This document shows, one piece after another, positions 13,285 through 56,204 of a DNA stretch of 56,204 nucleotides. Origin of the DNA: a virus; the IMG/VR virus record IMGVR_UViG_3300017417_000001, positions 1 to 56,204 of that record; one strand, given 5' to 3'. Positions within the stretch are counted from its first letter, which is position 1; each line of letters opens with the position of its first letter. Below the pieces are notes generated by a model that was not told where the DNA came from, ran no database searches, and saw only the letters and a list, made by a program, of their open reading frames with translations. The position numbers and the translations under genes were made by a program.

Positions 13285-13629
13285 TCACGCTCCGCAATTT
13301 GGAATTTTAGGAAGCGGCGCACGGCGGCTGACCTTATCAATCAAACTGTCAACCGCCTCACCGATCGTCCGCCGTGGCTTGCCGCGGCACTCAGCTTTAA
13401 TGTAGTCGCCAATATTACAAGCGCTACCTAGCTGCTCAGTCACCGGGCCGCGCTCCATTATGTAATTGATTGCCGGGTCGATAACCTCGGCATACCGTTG
13501 GGTGCCATAGATCTTGGGCAGCACCGCGCATGTGTAGGCGGACACCTCGGCATAGGACGGTCCTGTGTCCTGAGCGGTCGCGCCGCCAGCAGCAACGACG
13601 AAGGCGAAGGTGGCGAGAATCCTGCGCAT
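13285..13629 (-). CDS. Small secreted cysteine-containing protein (moron gene 2)
   Basis: The start at MRRILATFAFVVAAGGATAQD gives a Sec-type signal peptide, and the protein has four Cys. A TAATG overlap couples it to the upstream minus-strand gene. G+C is lower than in the flanks. Confidence 0.65.
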   Translation of the reverse strand: MRRILATFAFVVAAGGATAQDTGPSYAEVSAYTCAVLPKIYGTQRYAEVIDPAINYIMERGPVTEQLGSACNIGDYIKAECRGKPRRTIGEAVDSLIDKVSRRAPLPKIPNCGA

Positions 13630-14441
13630 TAGTTTACTGCTTTCTGATGCTGGCGAGCCCACGTTTGAAAATCAGTTTCATTAGCCCATGTATGCGGCGT
13701 ATCATTGACGCGTGAGACGACAGCGCCATTTGAAAAAACATAATATAGGTAACCAGCATAAGTACCCTGATTGATTACGCTTCCGGTGCCATGGTTCCCA
13801 ACGCGGGTAGCAATTTCTAGCGCCGCGGGGGCAGTGTTCTTAAAGGGCGTCTCAGATATTTGGCCGTCAGCCCAAGTTCGGAATGCGTACATGCTCGGAA
13901 AGGCTTCTGTTCCAGACGGGGTATGCGCCGTCACGCTATGGTCGGAGCAGACCACATAGCGGACACCCTTGTAGCTCTCAGTTGGTGTAGCGGGGGCTGT
14001 GAGCTGTGGGGTCGTGGTTGAAGCGCCAATGCGGCTCGCCACGAAATCAACAGCCTCCCATTCGGCCCAGAAGCGGCGCCTCTCGCCATTAACATTGGCT
14101 TCGTAGACCATGCGGTTTGAGAACGCTGGTTTGAAACGCCGAATGTGAGAGCGGCAACGGGCGTTAAATTCGGGGTCCCCAGATGCGCCCTGCCGAGCAG
14201 AAATCGTCTGCAGTAGGGCCTTGTGCTGGCGATCCTGCTTCGCCCCATTGGCCGACCACATGCCGATGAACAGCGCGATGAACCACAGAACGACGCCCGG
14301 CAGGACCAGGAAGGGCAGAGCAAAGGCTGCGCAGACACAAAGTAGGCCAACCCCTATGGCCGCTGCGATCCGGCCCTGGGAGAGCGGTAGCAGCGCTGGC
14401 AGGAAAGCCAGCACGAACATCACAACGGCAGCACCGGTCAT
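13629..14441 (-). CDS. Membrane protein with 2-3 N-terminal TM helices and a triplicated C-terminal motif of about 35 aa (moron gene 1)
   Basis: 270-aa ORF on the strand opposite the structural operon. The hydrophobic N-terminus reads VVMFVLAFLPALLPL..IGVGLLCVCAAFALPFLVLPGVVLWFIALFIGMW. Three related segments end in ..FVASR, ..FRTWADG and ..FQTWARQ. Confidence 0.7.
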   Translation of the reverse strand: MTGAAVVMFVLAFLPALLPLSQGRIAAAIGVGLLCVCAAFALPFLVLPGVVLWFIALFIGMWSANGAKQDRQHKALLQTISARQGASGDPEFNARCRSHIRRFKPAFSNRMVYEANVNGERRRFWAEWEAVDFVASRIGASTTTPQLTAPATPTESYKGVRYVVCSDHSVTAHTPSGTEAFPSMYAFRTWADGQISETPFKNTAPAALEIATRVGNHGTGSVINQGTYAGYLYYVFSNGAVVSRVNDTPHTWANETDFQTWARQHQKAVN

Positions 14442-28649: not shown

Positions 28650-29414
28650 ATGACGCGCTTCCTCGCGGCGCTGGCGCTTGCCTGCGCGCTCTCCAGCCAT
28701 GCCTGGGCTGATCCCACCTGCGACGACCAATTCCTCGGCGGCCAGAGGCCTGCACTCGCGGCGCCGGCCTCGGCCGATGTCGAGCTGTGCTCGGCCGATT
28801 TCGCCACCCTGTGGAGGCCGGCGACTCGGGACCCGGTCTACTCGGCCGAGCACCTGACGCCCGAGAACCTGACCAAGGCGGACCGCACGGCGCGTCTCGA
28901 CGCTTTCCACGCCGACGCGCGGCTGCCACACGGCATCCGAGCCGAGATGTCGGACTATGCCGGGAGCGCCTTCGACCGCGGCCACCTCGCGCCGGCGCAC
29001 GACATGCCGACGCCCGCGTCCATGCGCGAGAGCTTCGTGCTGTCGAACATGGCTCCCCAGGCGCCGGAGGCCAACCGGGGCGAGTGGGCCAAGGTGGAGG
29101 AATTCACCCGCCGCCTGGTGATCCTCGGCAAGGGCGCGTTCGTCGTCACCGCCCTGCAGTTCGACGCCCGGCCGAAGCTCTTGAGCGAGCGTGTGGCGAT
29201 CCCGGCCGCGTACCTGAAGGCAGTCTACGTCGAGCCCAACCCGTTCGCGCCCGCCGGCCAGGTCGGTGCCTATGCGCTCGCCAACACGGCCGGTGCCCGG
29301 CCCGAGGTCATCACCCTCGACGAGATGCAGCGCCGGACCGGGCTCGACCCGTTCCCGAGTCTGTCGCTGGCCGATCACGCCCGGGCCGACCTGCCGCCCG
29401 TGGCAGCGAAGTGA
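28650..29414 (+). CDS. Secreted DNA/RNA non-specific endonuclease (Serratia NucA / Endonuclease_NS family)
   Basis: Signal peptide MTRFLAALALACALSSHAWA. Catalytic DRGHLAP motif and SNMAPQ metal-binding motif. 254 aa. Confidence 0.85.
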   Translation: MTRFLAALALACALSSHAWADPTCDDQFLGGQRPALAAPASADVELCSADFATLWRPATRDPVYSAEHLTPENLTKADRTARLDAFHADARLPHGIRAEMSDYAGSAFDRGHLAPAHDMPTPASMRESFVLSNMAPQAPEANRGEWAKVEEFTRRLVILGKGAFVVTALQFDARPKLLSERVAIPAAYLKAVYVEPNPFAPAGQVGAYALANTAGARPEVITLDEMQRRTGLDPFPSLSLADHARADLPPVAAK

Positions 29415-29425
29415 GGGACTGACCC

Positions 29426-30163
29426 ATGGCCGCCACTCTCGACCGCGCGGCGTTCTTCGCGCACGTCCGCAAGCCGCTCTTCGGCGATCGCCTCTCGGCC
29501 GACCAGGTCGCGGGCATGGATGCAATCCTCGACGCCTGCCCAGCCGCGCTGCCGACCGACCCGCTGGCCTACGGATTCGCCACAACGTTCCGAGAGGCGG
29601 GCCCCACCATGCAGCCGATCCGGGAGATCGGCCGCGGCAAGGGGCGGTCCTACGGGCGCCCAGTGGGGCCACACAAGCAGGTCTACTACGGGCGCGGCCT
29701 CGTGCAGCTGACCTGGCTCGCGAACTACGTGAAGGTCACCGAAAAGCTGCGAAAGCTCGGGCTGTTGAAACCAGGCGAAGATCTAGCAGCCAATCCAGAC
29801 CTGGCGATGCGCCCGGACCTGGCTGCCGCGATCCTGTTCCACGGCATGATCGAAGGCTGGTTCACCGGGAAGAAGCTCTCGGACTACTTCGGGCACGGCA
29901 AGAGCAACCCGCGCGGGGCCCGGGCCATCATCAACGGCACCGACCACGCCGCGCTGATCGCTGGCTACTTCACGCACTTCAGAGCCGCGCTGATCGTCGC
30001 CAAGCACGGCGCGGCGGTCGAGCCAACGGCAGCGCCCGTACAGCCAGCAGCGGCCGACCCGAGCCCCCAGAAGGCGGCCCCGCCCCCCGCTGCTCACAAG
30101 CCCGTTGCCGTGAAGAAGCGCGCGGCGCCTGTCCACCACATCATCCACCGCGGGAGGCACTGA
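29426..30163 (+). CDS. Endolysin, glycoside hydrolase family 19 (chitinase-like lysozyme)
   Basis: The signature is FATTFREAG...YYGRGLVQLTWLANY...INGTDH. The C-terminus is a Pro/Ala-rich tail. Confidence 0.85.
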   Translation: MAATLDRAAFFAHVRKPLFGDRLSADQVAGMDAILDACPAALPTDPLAYGFATTFREAGPTMQPIREIGRGKGRSYGRPVGPHKQVYYGRGLVQLTWLANYVKVTEKLRKLGLLKPGEDLAANPDLAMRPDLAAAILFHGMIEGWFTGKKLSDYFGHGKSNPRGARAIINGTDHAALIAGYFTHFRAALIVAKHGAAVEPTAAPVQPAAADPSPQKAAPPPAAHKPVAVKKRAAPVHHIIHRGRH

Positions 30164-30318
30164 TGACCAAGGACCGGCGCACGCCGATCAAGCCGCCCGC
30201 TGTTCGCCCCGGCATGGAGCATCACGGCGAGATGAAGCCGGTCCGGTACCAGCCGCGACCGTCGCTCACTTTCCGGTTCGGTGCTTGGCTCTACGAGAAG
30301 CTGAAGGGCCGGGGCTGA
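30163..30318 (+). CDS. Small basic hypothetical protein
   Basis: 51-aa ORF whose ATG overlaps the endolysin stop (TGATG). Confidence 0.35.
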   Translation: MTKDRRTPIKPPAVRPGMEHHGEMKPVRYQPRPSLTFRFGAWLYEKLKGRG

Positions 30319-30320
30319 CC

Positions 30321-30506
30321 ATGAAGTGGTTCCTCGCCGCCCTGTTCGTCCTCGGCGTCAGCCTGATCGCCTGGGGCTCTGCCATCACCAACGGGCCCGG
30401 CTCGGCCGACGAGCGCGTAGCTGGTGCTTTCCCGGTCCTGATCGGGGTGGGCTTCCTCGTGACCGATTTCATCATCGCCCTCGCCTGGCTGCTGATCCGC
30501 GTCTGA
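30321..30506 (+). CDS. Putative holin (two TM helices)
   Basis: Start at MKWFLAALFVLGVSLIAWG, with a second TM helix FPVLIGVGFLVTDFIIALAWLLI. 61 aa, next to the endolysin. Confidence 0.45.
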   Translation: MKWFLAALFVLGVSLIAWGSAITNGPGSADERVAGAFPVLIGVGFLVTDFIIALAWLLIRV

Positions 30507-30594
30507 CCGAATGACCCTCGCGCGCCCAGGCAGGTCGCCGCGCGCTCCGTCAAATCTACCGCGCCGGCGGCTCCCGGCATCCAGAGGCTCCCCC

Positions 30595-30849
30595 ATGTCC
30601 TTCCTGTCCTCCATGCTCTCCTTCCTCGTGAAGGAGGCGCCGCACGCGGCCGAAGATCTGCAGACCCTGAACACCATGACGAAGAGCATCCGCGACGTGC
30701 TCACCAAGCTGCCGAGCAACGCCCGCGAGGTCCAGGCCGCGCTGACCGCGCTCGAGACCGTCGCCCAGCAGGGTTTTCAGGCCATCGCCGCACACAGCTC
30801 CACGGTCGCCGCGCCGGGCAAGTCGGCGACCACAACGGCCAAGAAGTAG
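30595..30849 (+). CDS. Small hypothetical protein
   Basis: ATG preceded by AGAGG. 84 aa, helical and Lys-rich at the C-terminus. Confidence 0.45.
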   Translation: MSFLSSMLSFLVKEAPHAAEDLQTLNTMTKSIRDVLTKLPSNAREVQAALTALETVAQQGFQAIAAHSSTVAAPGKSATTTAKK

Positions 30850-30912
30850 CGCCCACCCGCGCCCTGAGCGCCGGCAGGTAGTCCGGCGCGCCACTCATCC
30901 CCGGAGATACCC

Positions 30913-31563
30913 GTGAACCGCATCATCCTGGTGGCGCTCGCGCTCGCCCTCTTCGCTGCTCCGGCCCTCGCCGCGGAGGCCGTCGGCACGGTCGGGCCCG
31001 GCACCGCCGTCGTCTTTTGGTGGGGGCCCTGGCTCCTCGCCCTGTCCAACGCCTTCGCCGAGGCCATCGTCCCGGTGATCACGGCGGCTGTCATCGGCTA
31101 CCTCGCCAAGAACTACCCGGTGCTGAAGGCCTTCGTGACGGACAGGTTCGTCAACGAGCAGGTCCAGAAGGCGGTCGACTACGCCTTGAACGCCGAGGCC
31201 GACGCGATCCGGGGCGGCTTCGTCAAGGTGGAGGTCGGACCGGGCGTCCTCGGAACCGCGGTCGCCCGCATGGCTGAGAACGCCGACTTCAACCTGCTCG
31301 GCAAGAAGGCGATGCAGTGGGCCGGCGGCCCGGAGGCGGTGGCCAAGAAGGCGTTCCGGATGATGCATTTCGAGCAGGGCGTCTCTGCCGAGAACGTGCT
31401 GATCCCGGTGCTCCAGAAGATCGCGGACGGGACTCTTCTGCCGGAGAAGGCCGCGAGCCTGAAGGTCGTCCCGACCCCGGCCACCAAGGTCGTGCCGAAG
31501 GTGCCGGCGGCGCCGCTGCACAAGGCGCCAGCCGCGCCCGCAAAGCATCCGACAGCCCGCTGA
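30913..31563 (+). CDS. Membrane/secreted protein of the lysis region
   Basis: GTG start. Signal-like MNRIILVALALALFAAPALAAEA followed by hydrophobic helices. 216 aa. Confidence 0.6.
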   Translation: MNRIILVALALALFAAPALAAEAVGTVGPGTAVVFWWGPWLLALSNAFAEAIVPVITAAVIGYLAKNYPVLKAFVTDRFVNEQVQKAVDYALNAEADAIRGGFVKVEVGPGVLGTAVARMAENADFNLLGKKAMQWAGGPEAVAKKAFRMMHFEQGVSAENVLIPVLQKIADGTLLPEKAASLKVVPTPATKVVPKVPAAPLHKAPAAPAKHPTAR

Positions 31564-31568
31564 TCCGG

Positions 31569-32015
31569 ATGCCATCCCGCGCACTCGCCCGGTGGTTGCT
31601 CGTCCTCACCCTGACAGCGGCGGGCTGCCTCGCGGCGTTCGGAGCCTGGGCGCAGGCGGCCGAGGCGACGCAGGCGGCCGTTAAGGCCGGCGACTGGTAC
31701 CTGACGCAGGGCGTTCTCGGTGTCACGTGCTTGGTGCTCCTACTCACGGTCGGCTTCTTGTTTTGGAAACTCGACCGCCTCAGCACCTCGATCATGCGTG
31801 AGGTGATCACCGCCCTCCAGGCGAACACGGCTGCGACGGCGGCCGGCAACGTCACGATCACCGCGCTCAAGACGACCCTCGAGGCCACCGACGACGGCGT
31901 CGAGAAGCTGTCGCATCAGACGGAACTCGCAGCCCAGGCGGCCGCCTCTAGGGGCGTCGAGATCCTGGAAAATCAGAAAGAGATCAAGCGACGCCTGGAG
32001 GGCCGGCCCTCATGA
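31569..32015 (+). CDS. Membrane protein with lipobox-like N-terminus and coiled-coil C-terminus (spanin-like candidate)
   Basis: LTLTAAGC is a possible lipobox. A TM helix (GVLGVTCLVLLLTVGFLFW) is followed by a helical C-terminus. 148 aa. Confidence 0.5.
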   Translation: MPSRALARWLLVLTLTAAGCLAAFGAWAQAAEATQAAVKAGDWYLTQGVLGVTCLVLLLTVGFLFWKLDRLSTSIMREVITALQANTAATAAGNVTITALKTTLEATDDGVEKLSHQTELAAQAAASRGVEILENQKEIKRRLEGRPS

Positions 32016-32299
32016 CGTGGAAGTCCCTGATGGCCCTGATCATTCCGGCGGCCCTCCGGAAGGACGCCCACGCCGAATTTACACGGGCCATCGCTGCCAG
32101 CGTGCACGCGAGCAAGAGCCGGCGAAAGGCGCTCGTTCAGGTCACGATGGCCGCCGACACCCGCGCATCCTCGATGGAAGCCACGATCCATCGCATCGAA
32201 GGCCGATCGGGAGATCGCCTGACAGACCGTCCGCAGGTTGGCGAAGCCGCCTACAGGGTCGCCGAGGCGACGCGCGAGTTCCTGAGAAAGCAGCGATGA
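32012..32299 (+). CDS. Hypothetical protein
   Basis: 95-aa ORF with 4-nt overlaps on both sides. Confidence 0.5.
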   Translation: MTWKSLMALIIPAALRKDAHAEFTRAIAASVHASKSRRKALVQVTMAADTRASSMEATIHRIEGRSGDRLTDRPQVGEAAYRVAEATREFLRKQR

Positions 32300-32844
32300 A
32301 GGTCGTCATGGAGATTGCCCGCAGCCGCACGCTGTGGGTCGGGCTTTTGCTGATGGTCGGGTATTGGGTCATCGTTCCCTGGGTACCGATCAAGCCGCAG
32401 AACGAGTTCCTTCGCATTGGACGGACGGTCGCGGCGATCGCGGTCTCGATCGCGTTCCTGCCGGGGATCGTAAAGGCCCTGCGCACGCCTTGGCCGACTT
32501 ACAGTGGCCAGCTGATCCTCGGAATCGTGCTGTCGTGGATCGGCGTCTCGGGCTCGGCTGGTTGGGTACTCATCTGGTCCATGGCAGGTCAGCCGCAGTG
32601 GATGCTGGACTCAAACGTCAACGGCTTTTTTCTATGGATGCAGATCTTGGGAGCTGCGCTGCACCTCACAGCAAAGCACAGCGTCGAGGACGACATCCCG
32701 CGGCCAAACTGGATCCGTCTCGGCATCGCAGTAGCCTTCCTGGTGCTGATCGGAATCGGATTCATGGCGAGCGCGCCCGACATGCACAGCTTGGCGGCTG
32801 CGCTGAAGCCTTGGTTCGCCGAAAATCCAGATCTGCCCGACTGA
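32296..32844 (+). CDS. Polytopic membrane protein
   Basis: ATG at 32296, 182 aa, with about five hydrophobic helices. Confidence 0.6.
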   Translation: MKVVMEIARSRTLWVGLLLMVGYWVIVPWVPIKPQNEFLRIGRTVAAIAVSIAFLPGIVKALRTPWPTYSGQLILGIVLSWIGVSGSAGWVLIWSMAGQPQWMLDSNVNGFFLWMQILGAALHLTAKHSVEDDIPRPNWIRLGIAVAFLVLIGIGFMASAPDMHSLAAALKPWFAENPDLPD

Positions 32845-33013
32845 TGCAGCACATGTGCTCGTTCGACCACGGGATGGCCACGCTATGGTTCTCGCTGGGG
32901 GCCGGGTGCGGGCTTCTAGCAGCATACTTCGCGCTGCGTCCGCCATCGGACTGACCGGGAACGAAAGCCCTGTCTGCGGGTCTATCTCCCGTCCCTCAAT
33001 GAACCACCTTCAG

Positions 33014-33049
33014 CCCCGCCGGCACCGCCGCGCGGGGTTTTCCTGTTTT
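33014..33049 (+). terminator. Rho-independent terminator closing the plus-strand late operon
   Basis: CCCCGCCGGCACCGCCGCGCGGGG forms a stem of about 10 bp with one bulge. It is followed by TTTTCCTGTTTT. Confidence 0.6.
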
Positions 33050-33404
33050 AATCCTCCAAGTCTCTGAGCTTCCACCATGCGTAACTTTGCAAAAGCCCAA
33101 CAAGAAATCCGGTAAACATAAGAGCGTAGCCGTCTCTAATGGTGTAATTAAAATAAGTATGGGGGTAAAATACCCCCGTCGTTGCTGGTCCGATAGCAGA
33201 AACAGCTAATATTCCCAACGAAAGAGCATTAATAAATGCCGCCTTTAATTTCTTAACCTCATTCCTAGCTGATTTAGTCTTAGGCTTAAATCTTCTGAGA
33301 TCAAATATAGACGTTATAGCAAAAAAAATCACTGAAACACAAACGAAAAGAATTTCCATAATATTTGGATTATTGAATTGACCAACTAAATAACTAGTTA
33401 TCAT
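33048..33404 (-). CDS. AT-rich three-TM membrane protein (accessory cassette)
   Basis: 118-aa ORF that is strikingly AT-rich in a GC-rich genome. Its ATG follows directly on the TAG of the upstream gene (GGGAGGGA TAG ATG). Confidence 0.7.
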   Translation of the reverse strand: MITSYLVGQFNNPNIMEILFVCVSVIFFAITSIFDLRRFKPKTKSARNEVKKLKAAFINALSLGILAVSAIGPATTGVFYPHTYFNYTIRDGYALMFTGFLVGLLQSYAWWKLRDLED

Positions 33405-33650
33405 CTATCCCTCCCGCACCTCACTCGGCCCGAGCTCCACGATCACTGCCCGCCCGGCCGAGGTCAGAAACCAAGCCAGCTGCCTTCGTCCGGGCCCGTG
33501 AGCCCGCCGGGCCTCGACCAGGCCCATCTGCGTCAGCATCGGCATGTAGCTCGGATAGGCTCGGTACCGCAGCCCCTGCGGGTTGGCGGCGCAGGCCCGG
33601 AGCGCCAGGAGCGCGCGTCCGCGGATTGGAGCGTGAGGTTCGGTCGGCAT
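33405..33650 (-). CDS. Small winged-helix-like DNA-binding protein
   Basis: 81 aa. LLALRACAANPQGLRYRAYPSYMPMLTQMGLVEAR...WFLTSAGR resembles a MarR/wHTH fold. Confidence 0.55.
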   Translation of the reverse strand: MPTEPHAPIRGRALLALRACAANPQGLRYRAYPSYMPMLTQMGLVEARRAHGPGRRQLAWFLTSAGRAVIVELGPSEVREG

Positions 33651-33654
33651 CCGG

Positions 33655-33855
33655 TCAGCGGCCCTCGACGAGCCAGAGCAGCAGGCCGGCGACCGCCATC
33701 AGAGCGACGAAGGCCGCGGCGCCGCTGGCATCACGCAGGCTGATCACACCCCCGTCCCGGACCGTCGTGGCGACCCTCGCGACCAGATAGCCGCCGGCAG
33801 CGCCCGACAGGATGACGGCCGCGATGAGGATCCAGCCGGTGAGGGTTTGGGGCAT
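33655..33855 (-). CDS. Small two-TM membrane protein
   Basis: 66 aa with two hydrophobic helices. No obvious Shine-Dalgarno sequence. Confidence 0.45.
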   Translation of the reverse strand: MPQTLTGWILIAAVILSGAAGGYLVARVATTVRDGGVISLRDASGAAAFVALMAVAGLLLWLVEGR

Positions 33856-33917
33856 CGAGCAGAGTAGTTTCTGTCGGGATAACTGTCGGGTCAGCTATTC
33901 CAAACTCTGCTAAGTCT

Positions 33918-33967
33918 TGGTCGGAGTGGCAGGATTTGAACCTGCGACCCCCACGTCCCGAACGTCG
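33918..33967 (-). other. attP core: 3' about 50 nt of a tRNA-Pro(CGG) gene (anticodon arm, T arm, acceptor 3' strand, CCA)
   Basis: The reverse complement reads CGACG-TTCGGGA-CGTGG-GGGTC-GCAGG-TTCAAAT-CCTGC-CACTCCG-A-CCA. There is no matching 5' acceptor strand or D arm upstream. The integrase gene is adjacent. Confidence 0.8.
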
Positions 33968-33977
33968 GGGTGTTGCT

Positions 33978-35183
33978 TCAGCGCGTAGTGCGGCGGGCGA
34001 TTTCCAGAACGTTTGTCCGCGTTTGTTCACGCTCGTTTCTGTCGTTCCTGTCTGGTTTCAGTCGGTCTTGCCGGGACCGCCCGCCGGCCTTGGCCGCAGC
34101 CTCGCGCTGGTAGTCCGGGTGATGGTGCCAGTAGTGCCGCTCGATCGTCTCGACCGTGGTGGCATAGAAGCCGGCCGCGTCCTCCTTCGTCATGCCGTTG
34201 TGCATGCCCCAGGTGATCGCGGTGTGCTTCAGGATATGGGGCGTCACGTCGCTGCCGAGGCCCGCATCTCCGACGGCTCGCCGGAACGCCTTGTCGACGT
34301 CCATGACCGGTGCGCCGTTCCACTCGACAACGTGATTCCGGCATAGGCCCTGACGGCGCCAGCGGCGCAGGTGAGCCAGCAGGCGATCGGGAAGACGGAC
34401 CGGCAGCTTGCGCTTGTTCGTCTCGCGCTCGCCGGCGGGTCGCCGGTAGAAGACGCCGGTGTCGAGGTTGATCCAGCCCCTCCCCTCGGTCGGCTCGAAC
34501 GAGGCCGCGCAGATAGCGCCGGCCCGGGTGCCGGTATAAAGCGCGACCAAGATGAAGCGCGCGACGTGGCGGCGCGATCGGCGGCCCGTGGCGTGCCCCT
34601 TCTGCACCTCGCGGTATCGGTAGGCGGCGTGAATCAGTCGGGCGGCCTCAGCGCGGGTCAGCCAGCGCTCGCGGGCGACGCCCTTCTCCGGCAACACGAC
34701 GCGCACGATCTCGCGGTGCAGACCCTCGCGCAGGTGGTGCTCGATCGCGGATCGGAGATCTTCGAGCTGTCGCCGGGTCCCACCCTTGGCGACGTAGGCA
34801 CGGCAGGATTCGCCTGTGACCTGGGCCAGCGTCTTCGATCCCCAGAACCGCTGCAGCGCCGCGGCACGCTGCGCGACCTCCTTCGGCCTCGCCTGCCGGG
34901 CGGCGCAGTCGGTCAGGTAGATGTTGATGACGTCGGCGACCGAGATGGCAGCGAGTGGACGGTGGCCCTCGCGCGGCGGCTCATGCTTCTCGGCGAGGTA
35001 GCGGGCGAGGGCTTGCTCGGCTTCCGGAGGAGCTCGTCGATCGTCCTCGACAAGGACGCCTGTGCTGCGCTTGGTGCGACCGTCTCGGACGACCCAGACG
35101 GATCGCTCGATGAGTTCTCCTGTGTTCGGATCGCGCCGCTCGGCCTGAGCATAGAGACGGGCGCCCTTCGAAGGCCGCGACAT
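33978..35183 (-). CDS. int: Tyrosine recombinase / phage integrase
   Basis: 401 aa. Box II reads TPHILKHTAITW and the putative nucleophile Tyr lies in ETIERHYWH. The gene sits next to the tRNA-derived attP. Confidence 0.92.
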   Translation of the reverse strand: MSRPSKGARLYAQAERRDPNTGELIERSVWVVRDGRTKRSTGVLVEDDRRAPPEAEQALARYLAEKHEPPREGHRPLAAISVADVINIYLTDCAARQARPKEVAQRAAALQRFWGSKTLAQVTGESCRAYVAKGGTRRQLEDLRSAIEHHLREGLHREIVRVVLPEKGVARERWLTRAEAARLIHAAYRYREVQKGHATGRRSRRHVARFILVALYTGTRAGAICAASFEPTEGRGWINLDTGVFYRRPAGERETNKRKLPVRLPDRLLAHLRRWRRQGLCRNHVVEWNGAPVMDVDKAFRRAVGDAGLGSDVTPHILKHTAITWGMHNGMTKEDAAGFYATTVETIERHYWHHHPDYQREAAAKAGGRSRQDRLKPDRNDRNEREQTRTNVLEIARRTTR

Positions 35184-35392
35184 GCTTCTCTCATCCGTTC
35201 GATCTGCCGAAGGGTGGTGTACTCCTTACCCGCCGTGAACTCGGTTACCAGGCGCCCGGCATCGCGCTCCTTCCGGAGACCGCTCGCCGTCATGCCGCCG
35301 CCGGGATAGGCCAGCTCTGCGGCTACGTCGAGCCGGAGCGGCGTGTCGTTGGTGACCTGATCCCGCTCAGGCAAGCGGACGGACCTACCCAT
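34913..35392 (-). CDS. Excisionase-like / DNA-binding protein (3' end uncertain; the frame runs 270 nt into int)
   Basis: ATG at 35392. The N-terminal 70 aa look HTH-like (LRLDVAAELAYPGGGMTASGLRKERDAGRL...TTLRQIERMREACR). The remainder is S/P/R-rich, like off-frame sequence. Confidence 0.5.
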   Translation of the reverse strand: MGRSVRLPERDQVTNDTPLRLDVAAELAYPGGGMTASGLRKERDAGRLVTEFTAGKEYTTLRQIERMREACRGLRRAPVSMLRPSGAIRTQENSSSDPSGSSETVAPSAAQASLSRTIDELLRKPSKPSPATSPRSMSRRARATVHSLPSRSPTSSTST

Positions 35393-35870
35393 TGTCGCCC
35401 GCCCCCTTGATCTTCGTGGAGCGGGGCTGAAGGGCGGGCGGAACAGGCAAGGCGTCAAGAGGAAGCCAAAAGAGGGGCGCCCACTCATTGTCGTCTTCTT
35501 CGACCTCGTAGAACCCTTCCTGCCAATCCTCGGGGCTCCCGCCCTCTTCCGCAATGATAGCCTCAACAGACAGCCATTTGACCTGTCGTATGCCGCTGTC
35601 AAACAAATAGGCCCATATCGGCGTGCCGTCTCTGGGTGCCGTCTCGATCGGCCTCCACCCCATCGCCTCGCCCCCGTCGCCGGTAGCCGAGCGCAGAGAG
35701 GCGACTAGAGCGGCTCTGGCGCGTTTTTGATCTTCGTTCGCTTCGTGCTCGTCGCCGGTAGATCCGAGCAAGTAAGCCGTCGCGGCGCTCTCGCTCGTCC
35801 TGATCAGTTCATCAATCAGTGCCTCAATCTCCGCCAGTTCCCCTGGCGCGCGGGGAGGGTTAGCTGGCAT
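35385..35870 (-). CDS. DUF551-like protein (WRPIETAPRDGTPIW motif)
   Basis: ATG at 35870, 161 aa. The motif is common in phage early proteins. Confidence 0.65.
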   Translation of the reverse strand: MPANPPRAPGELAEIEALIDELIRTSESAATAYLLGSTGDEHEANEDQKRARAALVASLRSATGDGGEAMGWRPIETAPRDGTPIWAYLFDSGIRQVKWLSVEAIIAEEGGSPEDWQEGFYEVEEDDNEWAPLFWLPLDALPVPPALQPRSTKIKGAGDNG

Positions 35871-36225
35871 TGGATCCTCGCTTGGTCGGGAAGGCGCCAT
35901 CGACGATGTTGCTGTGGCGCAGGGGCCGGGCGACGTAGTCCCCGCGCTGGCGGCGATTGCGTCCCAGCGTTGGGTAGCCGCAATCCCGGGCCACGTAGTC
36001 AGCGACCCGCGAAGCCTCGGTGTAGCCCCACTCGTCATCGCCGTAGCCGCAGCATACGACTTCATGCGTGCTGACGCCGGTGAGGACGATCACCGCGGCG
36101 ACCGGCTCAATCTCGATCTCGTCGCGATCAACGAAGTCGGCCAGTTCGCGCAGATAGGCGGCAAGCTGGGCTCGCTTGGTGTACGAGCGTGCAGCGGCGG
36201 TCGGAAACGAGACGGCCTCAGCCAT
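35860..36225 (-). CDS. Hypothetical early protein
   Basis: ATG at 36225 preceded by GGGAGA. 121 aa. Confidence 0.6.
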   Translation of the reverse strand: MAEAVSFPTAAARSYTKRAQLAAYLRELADFVDRDEIEIEPVAAVIVLTGVSTHEVVCCGYGDDEWGYTEASRVADYVARDCGYPTLGRNRRQRGDYVARPLRHSNIVDGAFPTKRGSNAS

Positions 36226-36742
36226 GGTGGTCGTCTCCCTTTGCGGGCGATGGTCGTGGATCGGAGAGGGCGGAAGCCTTCGCATGGCCCTCAGCGTAGC
36301 CATCGTCCCAGCCGGTTTTGTAGGCCTCGTCGCGATGCTGCTGGACGTCGATTGCCAGGGCGGGATGCAGGGCGCCTCGCTCTAGCTCGACCCCCCGTTG
36401 CTCGGCTGCATCGGCACGCGCCCGTTGCTCGTTCATCTGGCGCAAAGCGGACTGGCGAGCTTCGTGCAGGCGCGTGACCCGCTCCTCTGCCTCGCGCAGT
36501 TCGGAGGCGAGCTGGTCTCGCTCGGCGCGGAGGGTGGCGAGCGGGCCGGCGATGAGGGCGTCGGCTTGCGTCCAGATCTCGTGCCGGGCGTCGGCAGCCC
36601 TTCCATCTGGGATGTCCGCCGCGATCTTGCCGGCCTGCTCCCAAGTCGCATCCGGCAACGATCCATAGCGTGCGGTCCACAGGAAGCGCGCGATCTCCTC
36701 CCGCAGGGCCTCTTCCTGATCGGCAGGAACGGGGGCGGTCAT
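36218..36742 (-). CDS. Hypothetical coiled-coil early protein
   Basis: 174-aa ORF with an ATGA-type overlap with the upstream gene. Confidence 0.6.
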   Translation of the reverse strand: MTAPVPADQEEALREEIARFLWTARYGSLPDATWEQAGKIAADIPDGRAADARHEIWTQADALIAGPLATLRAERDQLASELREAEERVTRLHEARQSALRQMNEQRARADAAEQRGVELERGALHPALAIDVQQHRDEAYKTGWDDGYAEGHAKASALSDPRPSPAKGDDHHG

Positions 36743-37671
36743 GCGGCTTCTCCGGACATGCAGGCGCAGCGCGTGACCTCGGCTGCTTCCTCTGCCGTCA
36801 GGACGCGGTCGCGCAGTTGGGTCAGGGTGAGCGGGCGCTTAATGGTTTTGGTGTCACCGGGTTGTTTGCGCCGATCTGTCATCATCGACACGTCGCCTAA
36901 TACGGCACGCAACTCCTGCTCCCGGCGCTCGGCATAGGCATAGCGCTCAGGAAAGGTCCCCAGCATCAGCTTCCAGTGGACTTGGCCGCCCTTGCAGCAG
37001 TGGCCGCCGCAGTTCGAATGCGAGAAGGCCCAGACGCTGAGCCGCTGTTGCCAAAGCCCGGCGCCGTCGACGATTGGCCGGATCAGCCACGGCATCACTG
37101 GGTGGTCGATCAGTGGCGCTTCGAACCGCCAGCCAGCGTCGGCCATCTGCGCGCGGAGGCCGCGAGTACTCAGGCGTTCCGAGCCCTCGAACCGCGCCCG
37201 CTCAGTGTCGTCAATCCCAACGATAACGATCGTCTCGGCCGGATCGCAGTTCTCGCGCAACCACCGGTCGCCGAGGTTTCGCTTCAGGATCTTGCTGCAA
37301 GGGTCGGCACGGCTGTTTCCTAGAAACCGCTCATGCTCGTAGACATCGAACGGATCGCGCCCATCAGCGATCCAGTGGAAGTCCGGCATCAGATCGCGCA
37401 CACGAGCGGCCAGCGTCAGGACATAAGCCTTGTAGAGCGGGCGATCTTCCCAAGCTGGGAAGTCGGCGATCTTAGGTAGAAAGCCCGGCGGCAGCGTGAT
37501 GCCGAAGAGGTGAGCCGCCCCAGCGATCAGGAAGCGGTAGGTATCCTGGTCCTCGATCAGCGTGTCAGTGAACAGGACCTCAAACCGCTCGGGCGCGTGC
37601 CGATCGATGTAGGTGCGGGCCGCGAGCCATGAGCCCTCACCGCCGGATAGCTTTGCGATGATACGGGTCAC
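36739..37671 (-). CDS. PAPS-reductase-family PP-loop ATP pyrophosphatase-like protein
   Basis: N-terminal PP-loop variant AKLSGGEGSWLAA and a C-terminal Cys cluster SHSNCGGHCCKGG. 310 aa. Confidence 0.7.
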   Translation of the reverse strand: MTRIIAKLSGGEGSWLAARTYIDRHAPERFEVLFTDTLIEDQDTYRFLIAGAAHLFGITLPPGFLPKIADFPAWEDRPLYKAYVLTLAARVRDLMPDFHWIADGRDPFDVYEHERFLGNSRADPCSKILKRNLGDRWLRENCDPAETIVIVGIDDTERARFEGSERLSTRGLRAQMADAGWRFEAPLIDHPVMPWLIRPIVDGAGLWQQRLSVWAFSHSNCGGHCCKGGQVHWKLMLGTFPERYAYAERREQELRAVLGDVSMMTDRRKQPGDTKTIKRPLTLTQLRDRVLTAEEAAEVTRCACMSGEAA

Positions 37672-39191
37672 GACCGCACCTCCCCGGCCTGATCCTGGCT
37701 CGCATGGATGGTGGCTAGAGCGTCGGACAGCTTCACGGCCGACATGTGCCAGGGCTCGACTGCCGCTTCCGCTTCGGCATCCTCGCGGGTGTAGTGGCCG
37801 GCCTCATTTGGGCTCACCGTGTAGCCGCATCGGTTCGGTCGGTAGAAGTAGCCGCCCTTCCGGATCAGATACGGATCCTCCAGCAGCGCCTTTGCCTCCC
37901 CTGCAGGATCGGGTTGGCTTCGCGGAGTGCATCCACGATGACCAGCGCCGGCAGCTTCCAGAGCATCGTCGAGATCCGCCGGCGCTGGCAGACGCCGCCA
38001 AGCAATCGGCTGATCCTCAATCTGGCCGTCCGCATATTCGCCATCGCTTTCGCCGGCCCACCACCAGGATCCGTCATGGGCCTCAGAATTGAAATAAGCC
38101 TCGCCGACGATGGCTATCTTGTCTGGGCCGCTTAAGATGACCGTCAGCAGAACTGGGGTGCGGTCCTTCGGTGCCGCCTCCATGTCAAAGCACCAATTGT
38201 CGACGGCGCCCGTCCCCTCATCGGCCGATCCCGTTCCTGCTGGGAGAGATGCGGGGACGGAACTCTGGCGAACTAGCCTGCCATACTCACCGTCGAGAGT
38301 CTCAAACTGCTGGCGATGGTAATGCGCGATCTCTTGCGCATCCCTAAGTTGGTCGCGCAGAGCTTCAATCTCGGTCTCGCGCGCGGAAGCTTCGACGAGC
38401 TTATTTTCACGGAAATCATTGACCAAACGGCAGACGAACTCGGCAACCCGCCTTGTACAAGAGGCTATGCTACCGGCGTCATCGCCATCGTCATGCGTGA
38501 CAATGCCGTCGCATGCGATTTCGCTCGGGCCGCCATCTTCGTCATGCGCCTCATGTTCGTCTGGATACCAAGTTCCTTTCGGGGCAGCCGCACTAAGCCG
38601 TTCCAGTTCCCGCAGATCCACCCGCTCTGCGGTGAGTGGAGGGGACGAGGATCCTTGCTGGGCGGCGAGAGGCCCGAGCCCACGCAGGTAGCCTTCTAGT
38701 TCGTCGTTAAACACCTCGGCTGCGCCCACAGAAATCAGCCGTTCCTCGCGGGTTCCGCCTTTGCTGAGCACGATCCGAACGTAGGAGCCGGATGGGTCAG
38801 GCTCGTTCTTCCCGTTGACCGGGCCGGAAACACTGATGTCGCGGAGCGACGATGATCCTTGCTGGGCGGGAGGGGGCGGAGCGGCGGCGATCATCGCTTC
38901 GTAGACCGAGCCGAGACCGCCCCATCCGCCCGTCTCAGCAGCTTCATAGGCATCGTGGGCGGCGTAGGCTGCGTCGAGCATCGCCTTGGTAGCCTGCTTA
39001 GGCAGCAGCACGAAGCCATCCGCTCCCCCGGCGGCACCTGCGCGGGCCATGTCCCGGGCCTCGGCGAAGGCGTTGGCCTGCCCCTCCCAAAAACACACCC
39101 TATTAATGGGCTTGGCAGTTCTAGCCTGCTTCACAGCCTCCTCGCGCTTGGCCTCGAAGCGTGCGGCCAGGTCCGTGGTGGGGTTCGTCAT
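37668..39191 (-). CDS. Composite early protein (Ead/Ea22-like segment, DUF551-like segment, further modules)
   Basis: 507 aa. It contains LRELERLSAAAPKGTWY (Ea22-like), EAAPKDRTPVLL..WWWAGE (DUF551-like) and a duplicated AQQGSSS linker. Confidence 0.65.
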   Translation of the reverse strand: MTNPTTDLAARFEAKREEAVKQARTAKPINRVCFWEGQANAFAEARDMARAGAAGGADGFVLLPKQATKAMLDAAYAAHDAYEAAETGGWGGLGSVYEAMIAAAPPPPAQQGSSSLRDISVSGPVNGKNEPDPSGSYVRIVLSKGGTREERLISVGAAEVFNDELEGYLRGLGPLAAQQGSSSPPLTAERVDLRELERLSAAAPKGTWYPDEHEAHDEDGGPSEIACDGIVTHDDGDDAGSIASCTRRVAEFVCRLVNDFRENKLVEASARETEIEALRDQLRDAQEIAHYHRQQFETLDGEYGRLVRQSSVPASLPAGTGSADEGTGAVDNWCFDMEAAPKDRTPVLLTVILSGPDKIAIVGEAYFNSEAHDGSWWWAGESDGEYADGQIEDQPIAWRRLPAPADLDDALEAAGAGHRGCTPRSQPDPAGEAKALLEDPYLIRKGGYFYRPNRCGYTVSPNEAGHYTREDAEAEAAVEPWHMSAVKLSDALATIHASQDQAGEVRS

Positions 39192-47193: not shown

Positions 47194-47964
47194 CTATCGC
47201 CTTGAGATCACTCCAGCCACCCGCCCTATGATGCGCACTGAACCATCCAGAATCAGCTCGATCGGCCGATAACTTGTGTTTCTAGAGCTGCATACGATGC
47301 GAGGCGGCTCATGCCCCCTTAGCAGTTCGACCTGTTTAATGATGACGCCATCACCATCGTTCACAGCGAAGATGCCACCTTGGCGCGGATCGGTGTCACG
47401 ACGATCTATAATCACGCGATCGCCCGACGAGAGTCCTTTGGCCGTTCCATCATCCATAGAGTCGCCGCGTACCTGCAGGATCTCCGAAGCTTCAAAACTC
47501 AGCCCCAATTCGCGCTCGACATACGCAGCAGGTAAACGCCACTGCTCTTTCTGCTTGTCGCTCGGTATTCCCTCATGGTTCCATTCCTCATCGGATCGAC
47601 CGCCGCCGTACGATGCACCGGCACGCAGATCGAGCTCCGGTATCGACGGCCAATCATAAAGCGTTGGATCAATGTGCCTAGTTGATGATTGTTCTCTTTG
47701 AGTTTTTGATACACGCTCTTTATGTGCATCCGGCCTTTGGTGGAATTTCTTCGGACCGCCCTCTGGTGTTTCGCCCTTTAACCATTCAACGGTTACGCCG
47801 CAAACTTTGGCAATTTCATAGATCTTTGTCGGCTTCTTAGAATTGCCGGCTTCTATAGCTTGAATGCTCGACTGTCCGGCCATGCTGACTCGCTCCGCAA
47901 GTTCGCCTTGCGTCAGTCCAGCCGCCTCGCGTGCAAATTGCAATCGGGAGCCAAGGGTATCCAT
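47194..47964 (-). CDS. CI/LexA-type repressor (XRE HTH plus S24 autopeptidase domain)
   Basis: Start chosen at MDTLGSRLQFAREAAGLTQGELAERV (HTH). The S24 motifs are LRAGASYGG (Ala-Gly), VRGDSM (Ser) and VIIKQV (Lys). G+C is lower than the genome background. Confidence 0.88.
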   Translation of the reverse strand: MDTLGSRLQFAREAAGLTQGELAERVSMAGQSSIQAIEAGNSKKPTKIYEIAKVCGVTVEWLKGETPEGGPKKFHQRPDAHKERVSKTQREQSSTRHIDPTLYDWPSIPELDLRAGASYGGGRSDEEWNHEGIPSDKQKEQWRLPAAYVERELGLSFEASEILQVRGDSMDDGTAKGLSSGDRVIIDRRDTDPRQGGIFAVNDGDGVIIKQVELLRGHEPPRIVCSSRNTSYRPIELILDGSVRIIGRVAGVISRR

Positions 47965-48030
47965 GCACCGCCGGTAGCGTCCATCTGACCAACTGTCCCC
48001 ACTGATTTTTTGGTTTTCTGGCTTGTGGAA

Positions 48031-48044
48031 ACCAAGGTATTGGT
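48031..48044. promoter_or_regulatory. Operator-like palindrome ACCAAGGTATTGGT in the divergent repressor/cro region
   Basis: Third copy of ACCAA-N4-TTGGT. A degenerate copy ACTGATTTTTTGGT lies at 48001-48014 and an extra TTGGT half-site at 48049-48053. Confidence 0.6.
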
Positions 48045-48058
48045 CTACTTGGTCAGGC

Positions 48059-48292
48059 ATGACGACGCCGAACCATGCCGCGTTGGCGCGGGCCATTGAG
48101 ATCTCTGGAACTCAAGCTGCCCTTGCTCAGGCAATCGGCAAGCGGCAGTCGCATGTTGAGTATTGGCTTAATAAGAGCAAGCACGGTGTGCCTGCCGAAT
48201 TGGTAGCCGCAGTGGAAGCCGCTACTGGTGTTCCGCGCCATGAACTGCGTCCTGATCTATTCTTCGCGCCTCATTCCGAAAAGGCCGCTTAA
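48059..48292 (+). CDS. Cro-like HTH protein (YdaS/Cro family)
   Basis: MTTPNHAALARAIEISGTQAALAQAIGKRQSHVEYWL, 77 aa, divergent from the repressor gene. Confidence 0.8.
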   Translation: MTTPNHAALARAIEISGTQAALAQAIGKRQSHVEYWLNKSKHGVPAELVAAVEAATGVPRHELRPDLFFAPHSEKAA

Positions 48293-56040: not shown

Positions 56041-56204
56041 TCGCCTACAAGCGCGGATTGCCCGCGCGTTTCTGGTCTTCAAGCCACCACCGCGCCTCAG
56101 CCTGATCGAATGGTCTGACACCTATCGGCGCGTGTCGGGAAAGAACTCGGCCCAGCCCGGCCAATGGCGAACCGCCGTGCAGCCGGCGGCTATGGGACCC
56201 ATGC
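56009..56204 (+). CDS. Terminase large subunit, 5' part (continues at base 3 after removal of the 123-bp overlap)
   Basis: The ATG at 56009 gives MPEVPSLSGADRLQARIARAFLVFKPPPRLSLIEWSD..., in frame with ORF 51..2069 through the repeat. Confidence 0.85.
   Translation, partial: MPEVPSLSGADRLQARIARAFLVFKPPPRLSLIEWSDTYRRVSGKNSAQPGQWRTAVQPAAMGPM
56082..56204. repeat. Terminal direct repeat, right copy
   Basis: Identical to bases 1-123. Confidence 0.95.

Follow-up and report, generated by a model that had tools for sequence, protein, structure and literature searches.

An AT-rich membrane-protein gene in a hairpin-closed cargo slot beside the attP of a temperate Methylobacterium phage

The viral record IMGVR_UViG_3300017417_000001 was analysed over its full length of 56,204 nucleotides (the window). 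Three small minus-strand genes, orf66, orf81 and orf118, lie next to the phage attachment site attP. On balance, and with moderate confidence, we favour the reading that this region is built of three separable layers: attP, a mobile orf66-orf81 module, and a cargo slot which is closed by a hairpin and holds the horizontally acquired orf118. The product of orf118 would act at the cell envelope, most likely as a moron of the lysogenic-conversion or superinfection-exclusion type. A preliminary description, made from the sequence alone, had reported three minus-strand open reading frames (ORFs) of 66, 81 and 118 amino acids (aa), and these were recovered as described. It had also interpreted them as a single accessory operon, recently extended by a captured cassette, expressed upon integration and serving exclusion, defence or lysogenic conversion. 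Those interpretations fared differently.

The base composition of orf118 sets it apart. It is the lowest-GC 357-nt stretch of the whole window, about 6.9 standard deviations (sd) below the mean (357-nt windows: mean 0.676, sd 0.046). An earlier estimate by eye of well under 45% was borne out by computation (Table 1; the 56-kb window has a G+C of 67.6%). The junction with orf81 reads GGGAGGGA TAG ATG. The orf118 start follows the orf81 stop without a gap (0 nt) and the composition switches exactly there, as had been noted before. Among 5.8e9 clustered proteins, and in an exhaustive hidden Markov model search of 1.84e9 representatives, a single full-length homologue was found, P0001, with 50% identity; the exact orf118 protein is not on record. 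The P0001 gene, on contig L001, is likewise low in G+C (45% vs 65% in the rest of the contig). It closes a gene set proximal to tRNA-Val, and behind it lies the hairpin that also closes the slot of the window. Between the two genes the identities at the three codon positions were 56, 72 and 28%, and synonymous sites were saturated. This substitution pattern indicates that orf118 is a real gene under purifying selection, and that the split of the two copies is old. Thus, the notion of a recently captured cassette held in part. Separate acquisition and an unameliorated composition agree with it, the saturation of synonymous sites against the only homologue does not. That orf118 is an assembly chimera or a chance ORF was excluded by the closed genome, the exact in-frame junction and the pattern of purifying selection.

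The orf66-orf81 module has a distribution of its own. The orf66 stop and the orf81 start are 4 nt apart. Window positions 33860-33406 were 84% identical in nucleotides to L031 and L032, and no match extended beyond them. The limits of this 455-bp module are 5 nt before the orf66 ATG and the orf81 stop codon. Its closest relative, L032 (orf81 85% identical in aa), lacks the AT-rich gene, and its orf81 is directly succeeded by convergent backbone genes. Because the homology to L031 and L032 is limited to these positions and L032 is free of the cassette, the three genes do not constitute one unit, contrary to what had been proposed. In L031 the module is located directly behind a large serine integrase, in the window behind a tyrosine integrase. 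In addition to L031 and L032, orf66 is present in L019, L021 and L027 (86, 52 and 44% identical, respectively), each time directly upstream of an orf81 homologue. orf81 without orf66 was found in L020, L022, L023, L024, L029 and L064, and other small genes (orfA to orfD) join or replace orf66 or orf81 in L001, L003, L021, L022 and L028. Judged by these sequence comparisons, orf66-orf81 is a mosaic unit which moves independently among Methylobacterium phages and prophages, next to two unrelated integrases, and the whole tRNA-proximal gene set likewise appears as a mosaic of small modules.

orf81, the 5' anchor of the slot, has 19 homologues. All those with names are from Methylobacterium species, which indicates this genus as the host. 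The protein is basic (11 K+R vs 5 D+E). Its AlphaFold2 model had a predicted local distance difference test (pLDDT) score of 80.8. With Foldseek the top matches in the PDB were HucR, Rv3488, PcaV and MexR (template modelling scores 0.55-0.66, E 8e-3 or weaker), and the best 50 matches were nearly all winged helix-turn-helix proteins of the MarR, PadR or ArsR type. Pfam, PHROG and NCBIfam gave no match. The prediction for orf81 is therefore, with good confidence, a winged-helix protein similar to the DNA-binding domains of MarR and PadR, in agreement with the first assignment. With these regulators it shares a predicted helix, recognition helix, beta-wing and C-terminal helix; unlike them, at 81 aa it has about half the length of MarR and no dimerisation helices, and the similarity is at the fold level only. 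A function of orf81 as the main immunity repressor was ruled out by the CI-like gene with HTH_3 and S24 domains elsewhere in the window. As to orf66, two clear hydrophobic segments agreed with the two transmembrane (TM) segments suggested earlier. No family match was obtained in Pfam, PHROGs, PADLOC or NCBIfam, the best being a weak holin-family PHROG (E 0.06).

Directly past the orf81 stop the sequences of the relatives part company, in every case. The slot which begins here ends at a 38-nt GC hairpin, GAAAACCCCGCGCGGCGG(C)TGCCGGCGGGGCTGAAGGT, with copies 95-100% identical; its length is 0.36-4.6 kb across phages and in the window it holds orf118 only. The hairpin ends the variable region in the window, in L001, L019, L021, L022, L028 and L029 and in seven further IMG/VR contigs; no relative whose slot end could be obtained had another closure. 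A survey of the att-proximal slot in related prophages, as the preliminary description had advised, revealed different, mostly low-GC cargo of the envelope type in the same place. Low-GC islands follow orf81 in L020 (with a 192-aa TM protein), L021, L022 (several ORFs) and L024. In L019, L155, L160 and L161 the gene nearest to the hairpin is low in G+C and codes for a protein with a TM segment or a signal peptide. The same holds for the slot gene of L020, from which the hairpin was not obtained. Further cargo is a P-loop kinase-like protein (by motif) with a 477-aa protein in L021. The slot extends over about 4.3 kb both in L028 (M. brachiatum), where it includes a trypsin-like protease and a methyltransferase, with a low-GC island further inside, and in L029 (M. 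sp. ARG-1), where it includes an HTH_3-M78 protein. PADLOC gave no match with the cargo genes in the equivalent slots of the relatives. On the plus strand the hairpin folds with -22 kcal/mol and is followed by the U-tract side sequence TTTTCCTGTTTT / UUUUCCUGUUUU, on the strand opposite to orf118. As this fold is followed by UUUUCCUGUUUU, the hairpin is probably the intrinsic terminator of the convergent operon. A homologue (74%) of the convergent gene orf275 is located just past the hairpin in L161, in the same arrangement.

The third layer is attP. On the minus strand the order is integrase, tRNA 3' fragment, spacer, orf66, orf81, orf118. The integrase matched Pfam Phage_integrase weakly (E 2.9e-4, under the gathering cutoff); homologues with 90% aa identity are encoded in L003 and L005. 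attP is intergenic, the integrase stop being at 33978 and the start of the tRNA fragment at 33960. The Rfam tRNA alignment obtained with cmscan covered T-arm and acceptor at 33921-33960, with CCA at 33918-33920. The 43-nt fragment is the exact 3' part of a tRNA-Pro(CGG), the full gene of which is present in M. komagatae L064 (assigned by eye from the sequence). The same 43-mer was found in at least 120 genome stretches of Hyphomicrobiales, nearly all inside a full tRNA, and in L003-L006. DNA homology between the window and the integrase relatives L003 and L005 ends exactly at the CCA end. A candidate arm-type repeat for integrase binding, CGACAGAAAC, has two copies in the 3' end of int and a third on the P' arm, in the spacer; a P'-arm repeat related to those of the spacer was found in L004. 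This attP is genuine. The earlier statement that orf66 starts 62 nt past the CCA end of the tRNA-Pro fragment, on the same strand, was correct.

Table 1. Features of the att-proximal region and the CI-like repressor gene of the window.
Feature	Position	Strand	Remarks
orf66, 66 aa, two hydrophobic segments	33655-33855	minus	G+C 71.6%, GC3 (G+C at third codon positions) 88%; hydropathy
orf81, 81 aa, predicted winged-helix protein, 5' anchor of cargo slot	33405-33650	minus	G+C 71.1%, GC3 82%
orf118, 118-aa helical membrane protein	33048-33404	minus	G+C 36.1%, GC3 33%
38-nt GC-rich hairpin GAAAACCCCGCGCGGCGGTGCCGGCGGGGCTGAAGGT, 3' slot boundary	33005-33042	none	
orf275, convergent backbone gene, 275-aa membrane protein	32017-32844	plus	phrog_36610, E 2e-5; transcript would end at the hairpin
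Spacer, 62 nt, CCA to orf66 ATG	33917-33856	minus	
P'-arm direct repeats CCCGACAG-TTAT-CCCGACAG-AAAC	33867-33890	minus	within spacer 33856-33917
attP core, 43-nt tRNA-Pro(CGG) 3' copy (T-arm, acceptor strand, CCA)	33960-33918	minus	Rfam tRNA (cmscan)
Tyrosine integrase, 401 aa	33978-35183	minus	phrog_1, E 8.8e-28; upstream of attP, on the strand of the operon
P-arm candidate arm-type integrase-binding repeat CGAC(A/T)GAAAC, two copies inside int 3' end	34035-34044 (exact), 34055-34064 (one mismatch)	minus	repeat family D3
CI-like repressor (HTH_3 + Peptidase_S24)	47194-48096	minus	

In a lysogen the three genes had been expected directly behind the rebuilt tRNA and in its orientation. This arrangement was indeed seen in relatives, namely in L064, in M. 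persicinum L097, in L032 with tRNA-Thr and in L001 with tRNA-Val. L064 has, behind an intact tRNA-Pro(CGG), the P'-arm repeats of the window, an orfC-like ORF that starts 19 nt past CCA and then an orf81 homologue, all co-oriented; no terminator was predicted at this junction. The P'-arm motif behind an intact tRNA-Pro is exact in L064 and has one change each in L097 and in Methylobacterium sp. W2 L049. In L040, a metagenome-assembled genome, the intact tRNA-Pro is followed by a GGGACAG variant of the motif. In L032 the sequence is tRNA-Thr(CGT), 74 nt, orf66 and orf81, i.e. the integrated form of the L031 phage. In L001 the small-gene set is located, co-oriented, behind an intact tRNA-Val. 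We also noted that downstream of the tRNA-Pro(CGG) genes of Hyphomicrobiales (L033-L152) the sequence is extremely diverse and that short direct repeats typical of integrase arm sites are frequent; the tRNA-Pro(CGG) locus appears to be a hotspot at which integrative elements of many kinds insert. A further tRNA gene follows about 45 nt past tRNA-Pro in Methylorubrum, and there transcription beyond tRNA-Pro may be natural.

How might orf66, orf81 and orf118 be expressed? Neither a terminator nor a sigma-70-like promoter was predicted in the spacer or between int, the tRNA fragment and orf66. A consensus scan of 32700-34200, not tuned to Methylobacterium, showed no sigma-70-like promoter. A terminator with a U-tract on the strand of orf118 is absent after this gene, the U-tract of the hairpin being on the opposite strand only. 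The int transcript of the free phage would extend over the three genes at its end. In the lysogen they would be reached by read-through from the host tRNA-Pro gene; this is plausible because the spacer has no predicted terminator and no recognisable promoter, and the distance of 19 nt between tRNA and ORF in L064 strengthens the idea. Translation of orf118 would be coupled to that of orf81, as the TAG directly adjoins the ATG and an SD-like (Shine-Dalgarno-like) GGGAGGGA in the 3' end of orf81 stops 3 nt short of the orf118 ATG, with the stop codon TAG between. A strict dependence on integration, as inferred in the preliminary description, is doubtful because the integrase gene precedes the three genes on their own strand without an intervening terminator, and L001 has a terminator after its tRNA. 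The simplest reading would be a promoter swap, from int to tRNA-Pro.

The orf118 protein, a predicted small helical protein of the inner membrane, has two clear hydrophobic segments, 12-39 and 53-79. AlphaFold2 predicted four helices (pLDDT 74). From the N-terminus a TM helix is followed by a basic loop that contains the motif K-x-A-R-N-E-x-x-K-L, by two more helices and by LED at the C-terminus. By the positive-inside rule this basic loop should be cytoplasmic. A profile search detected about a dozen distant two-TM relatives of 66-90 aa, which share an N-terminal M-G-K-A-A-R-N-E-x-[RK]-K-L and the C-terminal LED. orf118 corresponds to this core plus an N-terminal TM helix. The exhaustive profile search otherwise yielded only two short weak relatives; P0002 and P0003, also returned by it, matched in 7-9 repetitive stretches and were discarded as repeat-protein artefacts. 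The family profile did not match viral contigs, and the orf118 model matched none of the folds in the PDB (all E above 3). A terminator-like hairpin, GGGGGTATTTTACCCCC with a T-rich tail, is present inside orf118 at 33177-33161 on the minus strand. One such site was found vs 1.4 expected by chance, and it is not conserved in L001. The latter, a 2.1-kb public contig, carries untrimmed Nextera adaptor (CTGTCTCTTATACACATCT) at both ends (1-45 and 2048-2102).

From context only we infer that orf118 takes part in exclusion or conversion, and several observations weigh against our reading of the locus. No significant match of orf118 was found in Pfam, NCBIfam, PHROG or PADLOC, and no link to exclusion, defence, holin or toxin families. 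The third hydrophobic helix, at about 90-110, is weaker (Kyte-Doolittle about 1.1, a hand estimate; AlphaFold2 places it within helix 81-117), so that of the three TM segments originally assigned two are clear. The short relatives on contigs of sufficient length (Tardiphaga; a PGK-aldolase locus) are in ordinary chromosomal contexts with a G+C near that of the surroundings; accordingly, a housekeeping-like membrane role is possible for orf118. orf66 has no recognisable SD sequence. A canonical strong terminator is located right behind tRNA-Val in L001 and a weak terminator-like site is present in L032. This indicates that read-through from the tRNA is no general rule at such loci. Finally, the promoter scan sees the sigma-70 consensus only, and a Methylobacterium promoter in the spacer or in int could escape it.

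Other readings of the same data were considered. One extends the three layers to a general principle: temperate Methylobacterium phages would keep a platform for lysogen-specific expression, consisting, whatever the integrase, of a promoter-less operon behind a rebuilt, highly transcribed host tRNA gene (Pro, Thr or Val) and a hairpin-delimited slot in which AT-rich envelope-protein genes, those of the almost unique orf118 family among them, are exchanged. We regard this as unlikely; if true, the cargo would depend for its expression on the integrated state and on transcription of the tRNA, and silencing of AT-rich DNA might dampen it. Somewhat less likely still is a regulator-effector defence module of orf81 and orf118, with or without orf66, in which the winged-helix protein represses a membrane-disrupting effector that is freed on superinfection, causing abortive infection or forming a SLATT-like pore. 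A regulator directly upstream of, and translationally coupled to, a small multi-helix membrane protein would suit such a device. Weak similarities point the same way, i.e. of orf118 to PADLOC RTasSLATT (E 0.0084, aa 10-55, 46 residues) and of the distant relative P0009 to NCBIfam SLATT_2 (E 0.21). Yet these scores are at noise level, and Pfam SLATT gave nothing at E up to 1. Moreover, orf81 is not dedicated to orf118, as it occurs with entirely different downstream cargo or, in L032, with none, and P0001 is encoded behind different upstream genes, without orf81. A partner enzyme (reverse transcriptase, SMODS, SLOG or a nuclease) is absent from the locus. The gene of another distant relative, P0005 (69 aa), lies on a metagenomic contig (L012:15-1093) near a CHAT-domain protease gene, with one minus-strand ORF between, and this neighbourhood, which would suit a defence module, is the only defence-like hint for the family. 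No homology in PADLOC, PHROGs, Pfam, NCBIfam or the PDB fold search backed the defence or exclusion module of the preliminary description.

It is very unlikely that the three genes are one co-inherited accessory operon which is switched on by integration via tRNA read-through. The gaps of 4 and 0 nt, the co-orientation with the tRNA across a 62-nt spacer without terminator and the intact-tRNA junctions in relatives are as expected for such an operon; however, module and cassette are distributed differently, with orf66-orf81 lacking orf118 in L032, the free phage can also transcribe the genes from int, and L001 has a strong terminator behind its tRNA. Equally improbable appears the proposal that the hairpin is also a recombination site for capture and exchange of cassettes, the slot then being loosely analogous to an integron attC system. 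The near identity of the hairpin across phages, in which the flanking genes are only 44-86% identical, and its presence next to the orf118 homologue in the otherwise different context of L001 would be explained. A second, degenerate copy (80%) in L022 (1882-1925), between two low-GC segments inside the slot, may indicate that new cargo units enter at the hairpin or together with it. Yet an integron-type integrase is absent, the only integrase being the phage tyrosine integrase with its tRNA attP. No GTTRRRY core sites were seen by eye, and the upstream limit of the cargo varies: some relatives have it at the orf81 stop, others only past a convergent gene of 122 aa. The same data are accounted for by a strongly constrained, bidirectionally placed terminator which offers homologous recombination a short patch. 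Hardly credible, in our view, is a role of orf66 and orf81 as accessory factors of integration and excision, with orf81 as an excisionase-like recombination directionality factor and orf118 as a passenger. A small, basic winged-helix protein adjoining attP and int may be viewed as such a factor. Recombination directionality factors are normally integrase-specific, however, and here the same module is found beside a tyrosine integrase in the window and a large serine integrase in L031, which makes orf81 an unlikely excisionase; no Xis or excisionase family was matched in Pfam or PHROGs.

Our preferred reading, three separable layers with orf118 as an envelope-acting moron, can be compared with known systems. 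Lambdoid bor and lom, P2 old, tin and fun near att, and att-proximal, lysogen-expressed genes of mycobacteriophages are examples of morons or att-linked cargo. Like these, orf118 has an atypical base composition, is missing in the closest relatives and lies between conserved landmarks near att, and the same slot carries different cargo in relatives. Unlike them, it has no autonomous promoter recognisable by the sigma-70 consensus scan and no same-strand U-tract terminator, and seems to depend on a transcript from upstream and on coupled translation. Phage morons (defined in PMC7380047) and att-proximal cargo hotspots are an established concept, under which the locus falls as a well-delimited example, not as a new system. 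A description of the slot landmarks, i.e. the small winged-helix gene and the 38-nt hairpin, or of this group of Methylobacterium phages was not found in the literature searched. Membrane proteins for superinfection exclusion are P22 SieA and SieB, lactococcal Sie2009, Ltp of S. thermophilus and HK97 gp15. orf118 is likewise a small, prophage-encoded, predicted envelope protein at an integrase- and att-adjacent locus, as is other cargo of the slot, yet it resembles none of them in sequence or fold. Integron cassettes go with an IntI-type integrase, attI and Pc next to an array of cassettes, each closed by an attC with GTTRRRY core sites; here the only integrase is of the phage tyrosine type, and the hairpin measures 38 nt with a second, degenerate copy in L022 only.

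The expression of the genes has parallels as well. The E. coli thrU-tyrU-glyT-thrT-tufB operon is a unit of tRNA and mRNA co-transcription. In both cases a protein gene lies directly behind a tRNA with no terminator between and would use the tRNA promoter; here the arrangement would arise by prophage integration. In mycobacteriophage BPs and its relatives immunity depends on integration since attP forms part of the repressor ORF, the product of which is altered by integration (PMC3694055). Here, recombination at attP would similarly alter gene connections, as the unit upstream of orf66-orf118 would be swapped from int to the host tRNA-Pro. However, with an intergenic attP only the transcriptional context would change, and the echo is a loose one. 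In the L031 relative the attP core, a tRNA-Thr 3' end (CCTCCGGCACCA; L031:1840-1906, L032:109-180), is indeed part of a coding sequence, namely of the 3' end of the large serine integrase ORF, with about 55-70 nt left to the stop codon. Integration would therefore replace the integrase C-terminus, and an integration-dependent change of Int is possible in this phage.

The slot is a precise, recurrent site for cargo in an under-studied group of Methylobacterium phages and may be mined for new lysogenic-conversion or exclusion genes. orf118 adds a nearly orphan family of membrane proteins marked by a conserved, presumably cytoplasmic K-A-A-R-N-E-x-x-K-L motif. With three combinations of tRNA and integrase in the same co-oriented layout, the locus is also a natural test case for host tRNA promoters which drive prophage accessory genes. 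Current concepts are unchanged unless the ideas of read-through or cassette exchange are confirmed; interest would grow if a tRNA-driven, lysogen-specific expression or a site-specific exchange at the hairpin were demonstrated.

The window begins and ends with the same 123 bases (1-123 and 56082-56204). This terminal repeat identifies the window as a circularly closed, complete phage genome assembly. TerL, portal, a fusion of protease and major capsid protein, tail sheath, tape measure, tail fibre, a DNA methyltransferase and a DnaB helicase were recognised; no complete tRNA gene was found. The window is a complete temperate, contractile-tailed (myovirus-like) Methylobacterium phage in the non-integrated attP configuration. 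A megablast search with 30000-38000 gave no match among GenBank phages. Two more low-GC islands were noticed. One, at 13552-13929 (minimum 46.5%), overlaps a 270-aa ORF on the minus strand (13629-14441) amid plus-strand tail genes. Pfam and PADLOC had no match for this ORF, which is another candidate moron. The other, at 47521-47920 (minimum 44.5%), is inside the gene of the CI-like repressor, which is thus itself atypical in composition. Lastly, a DNA/RNA non-specific endonuclease (Endonuclease_NS, E 1e-35) is encoded on the plus strand at 28650-29414, between the tail-fibre gene and the point of convergence at the hairpin.

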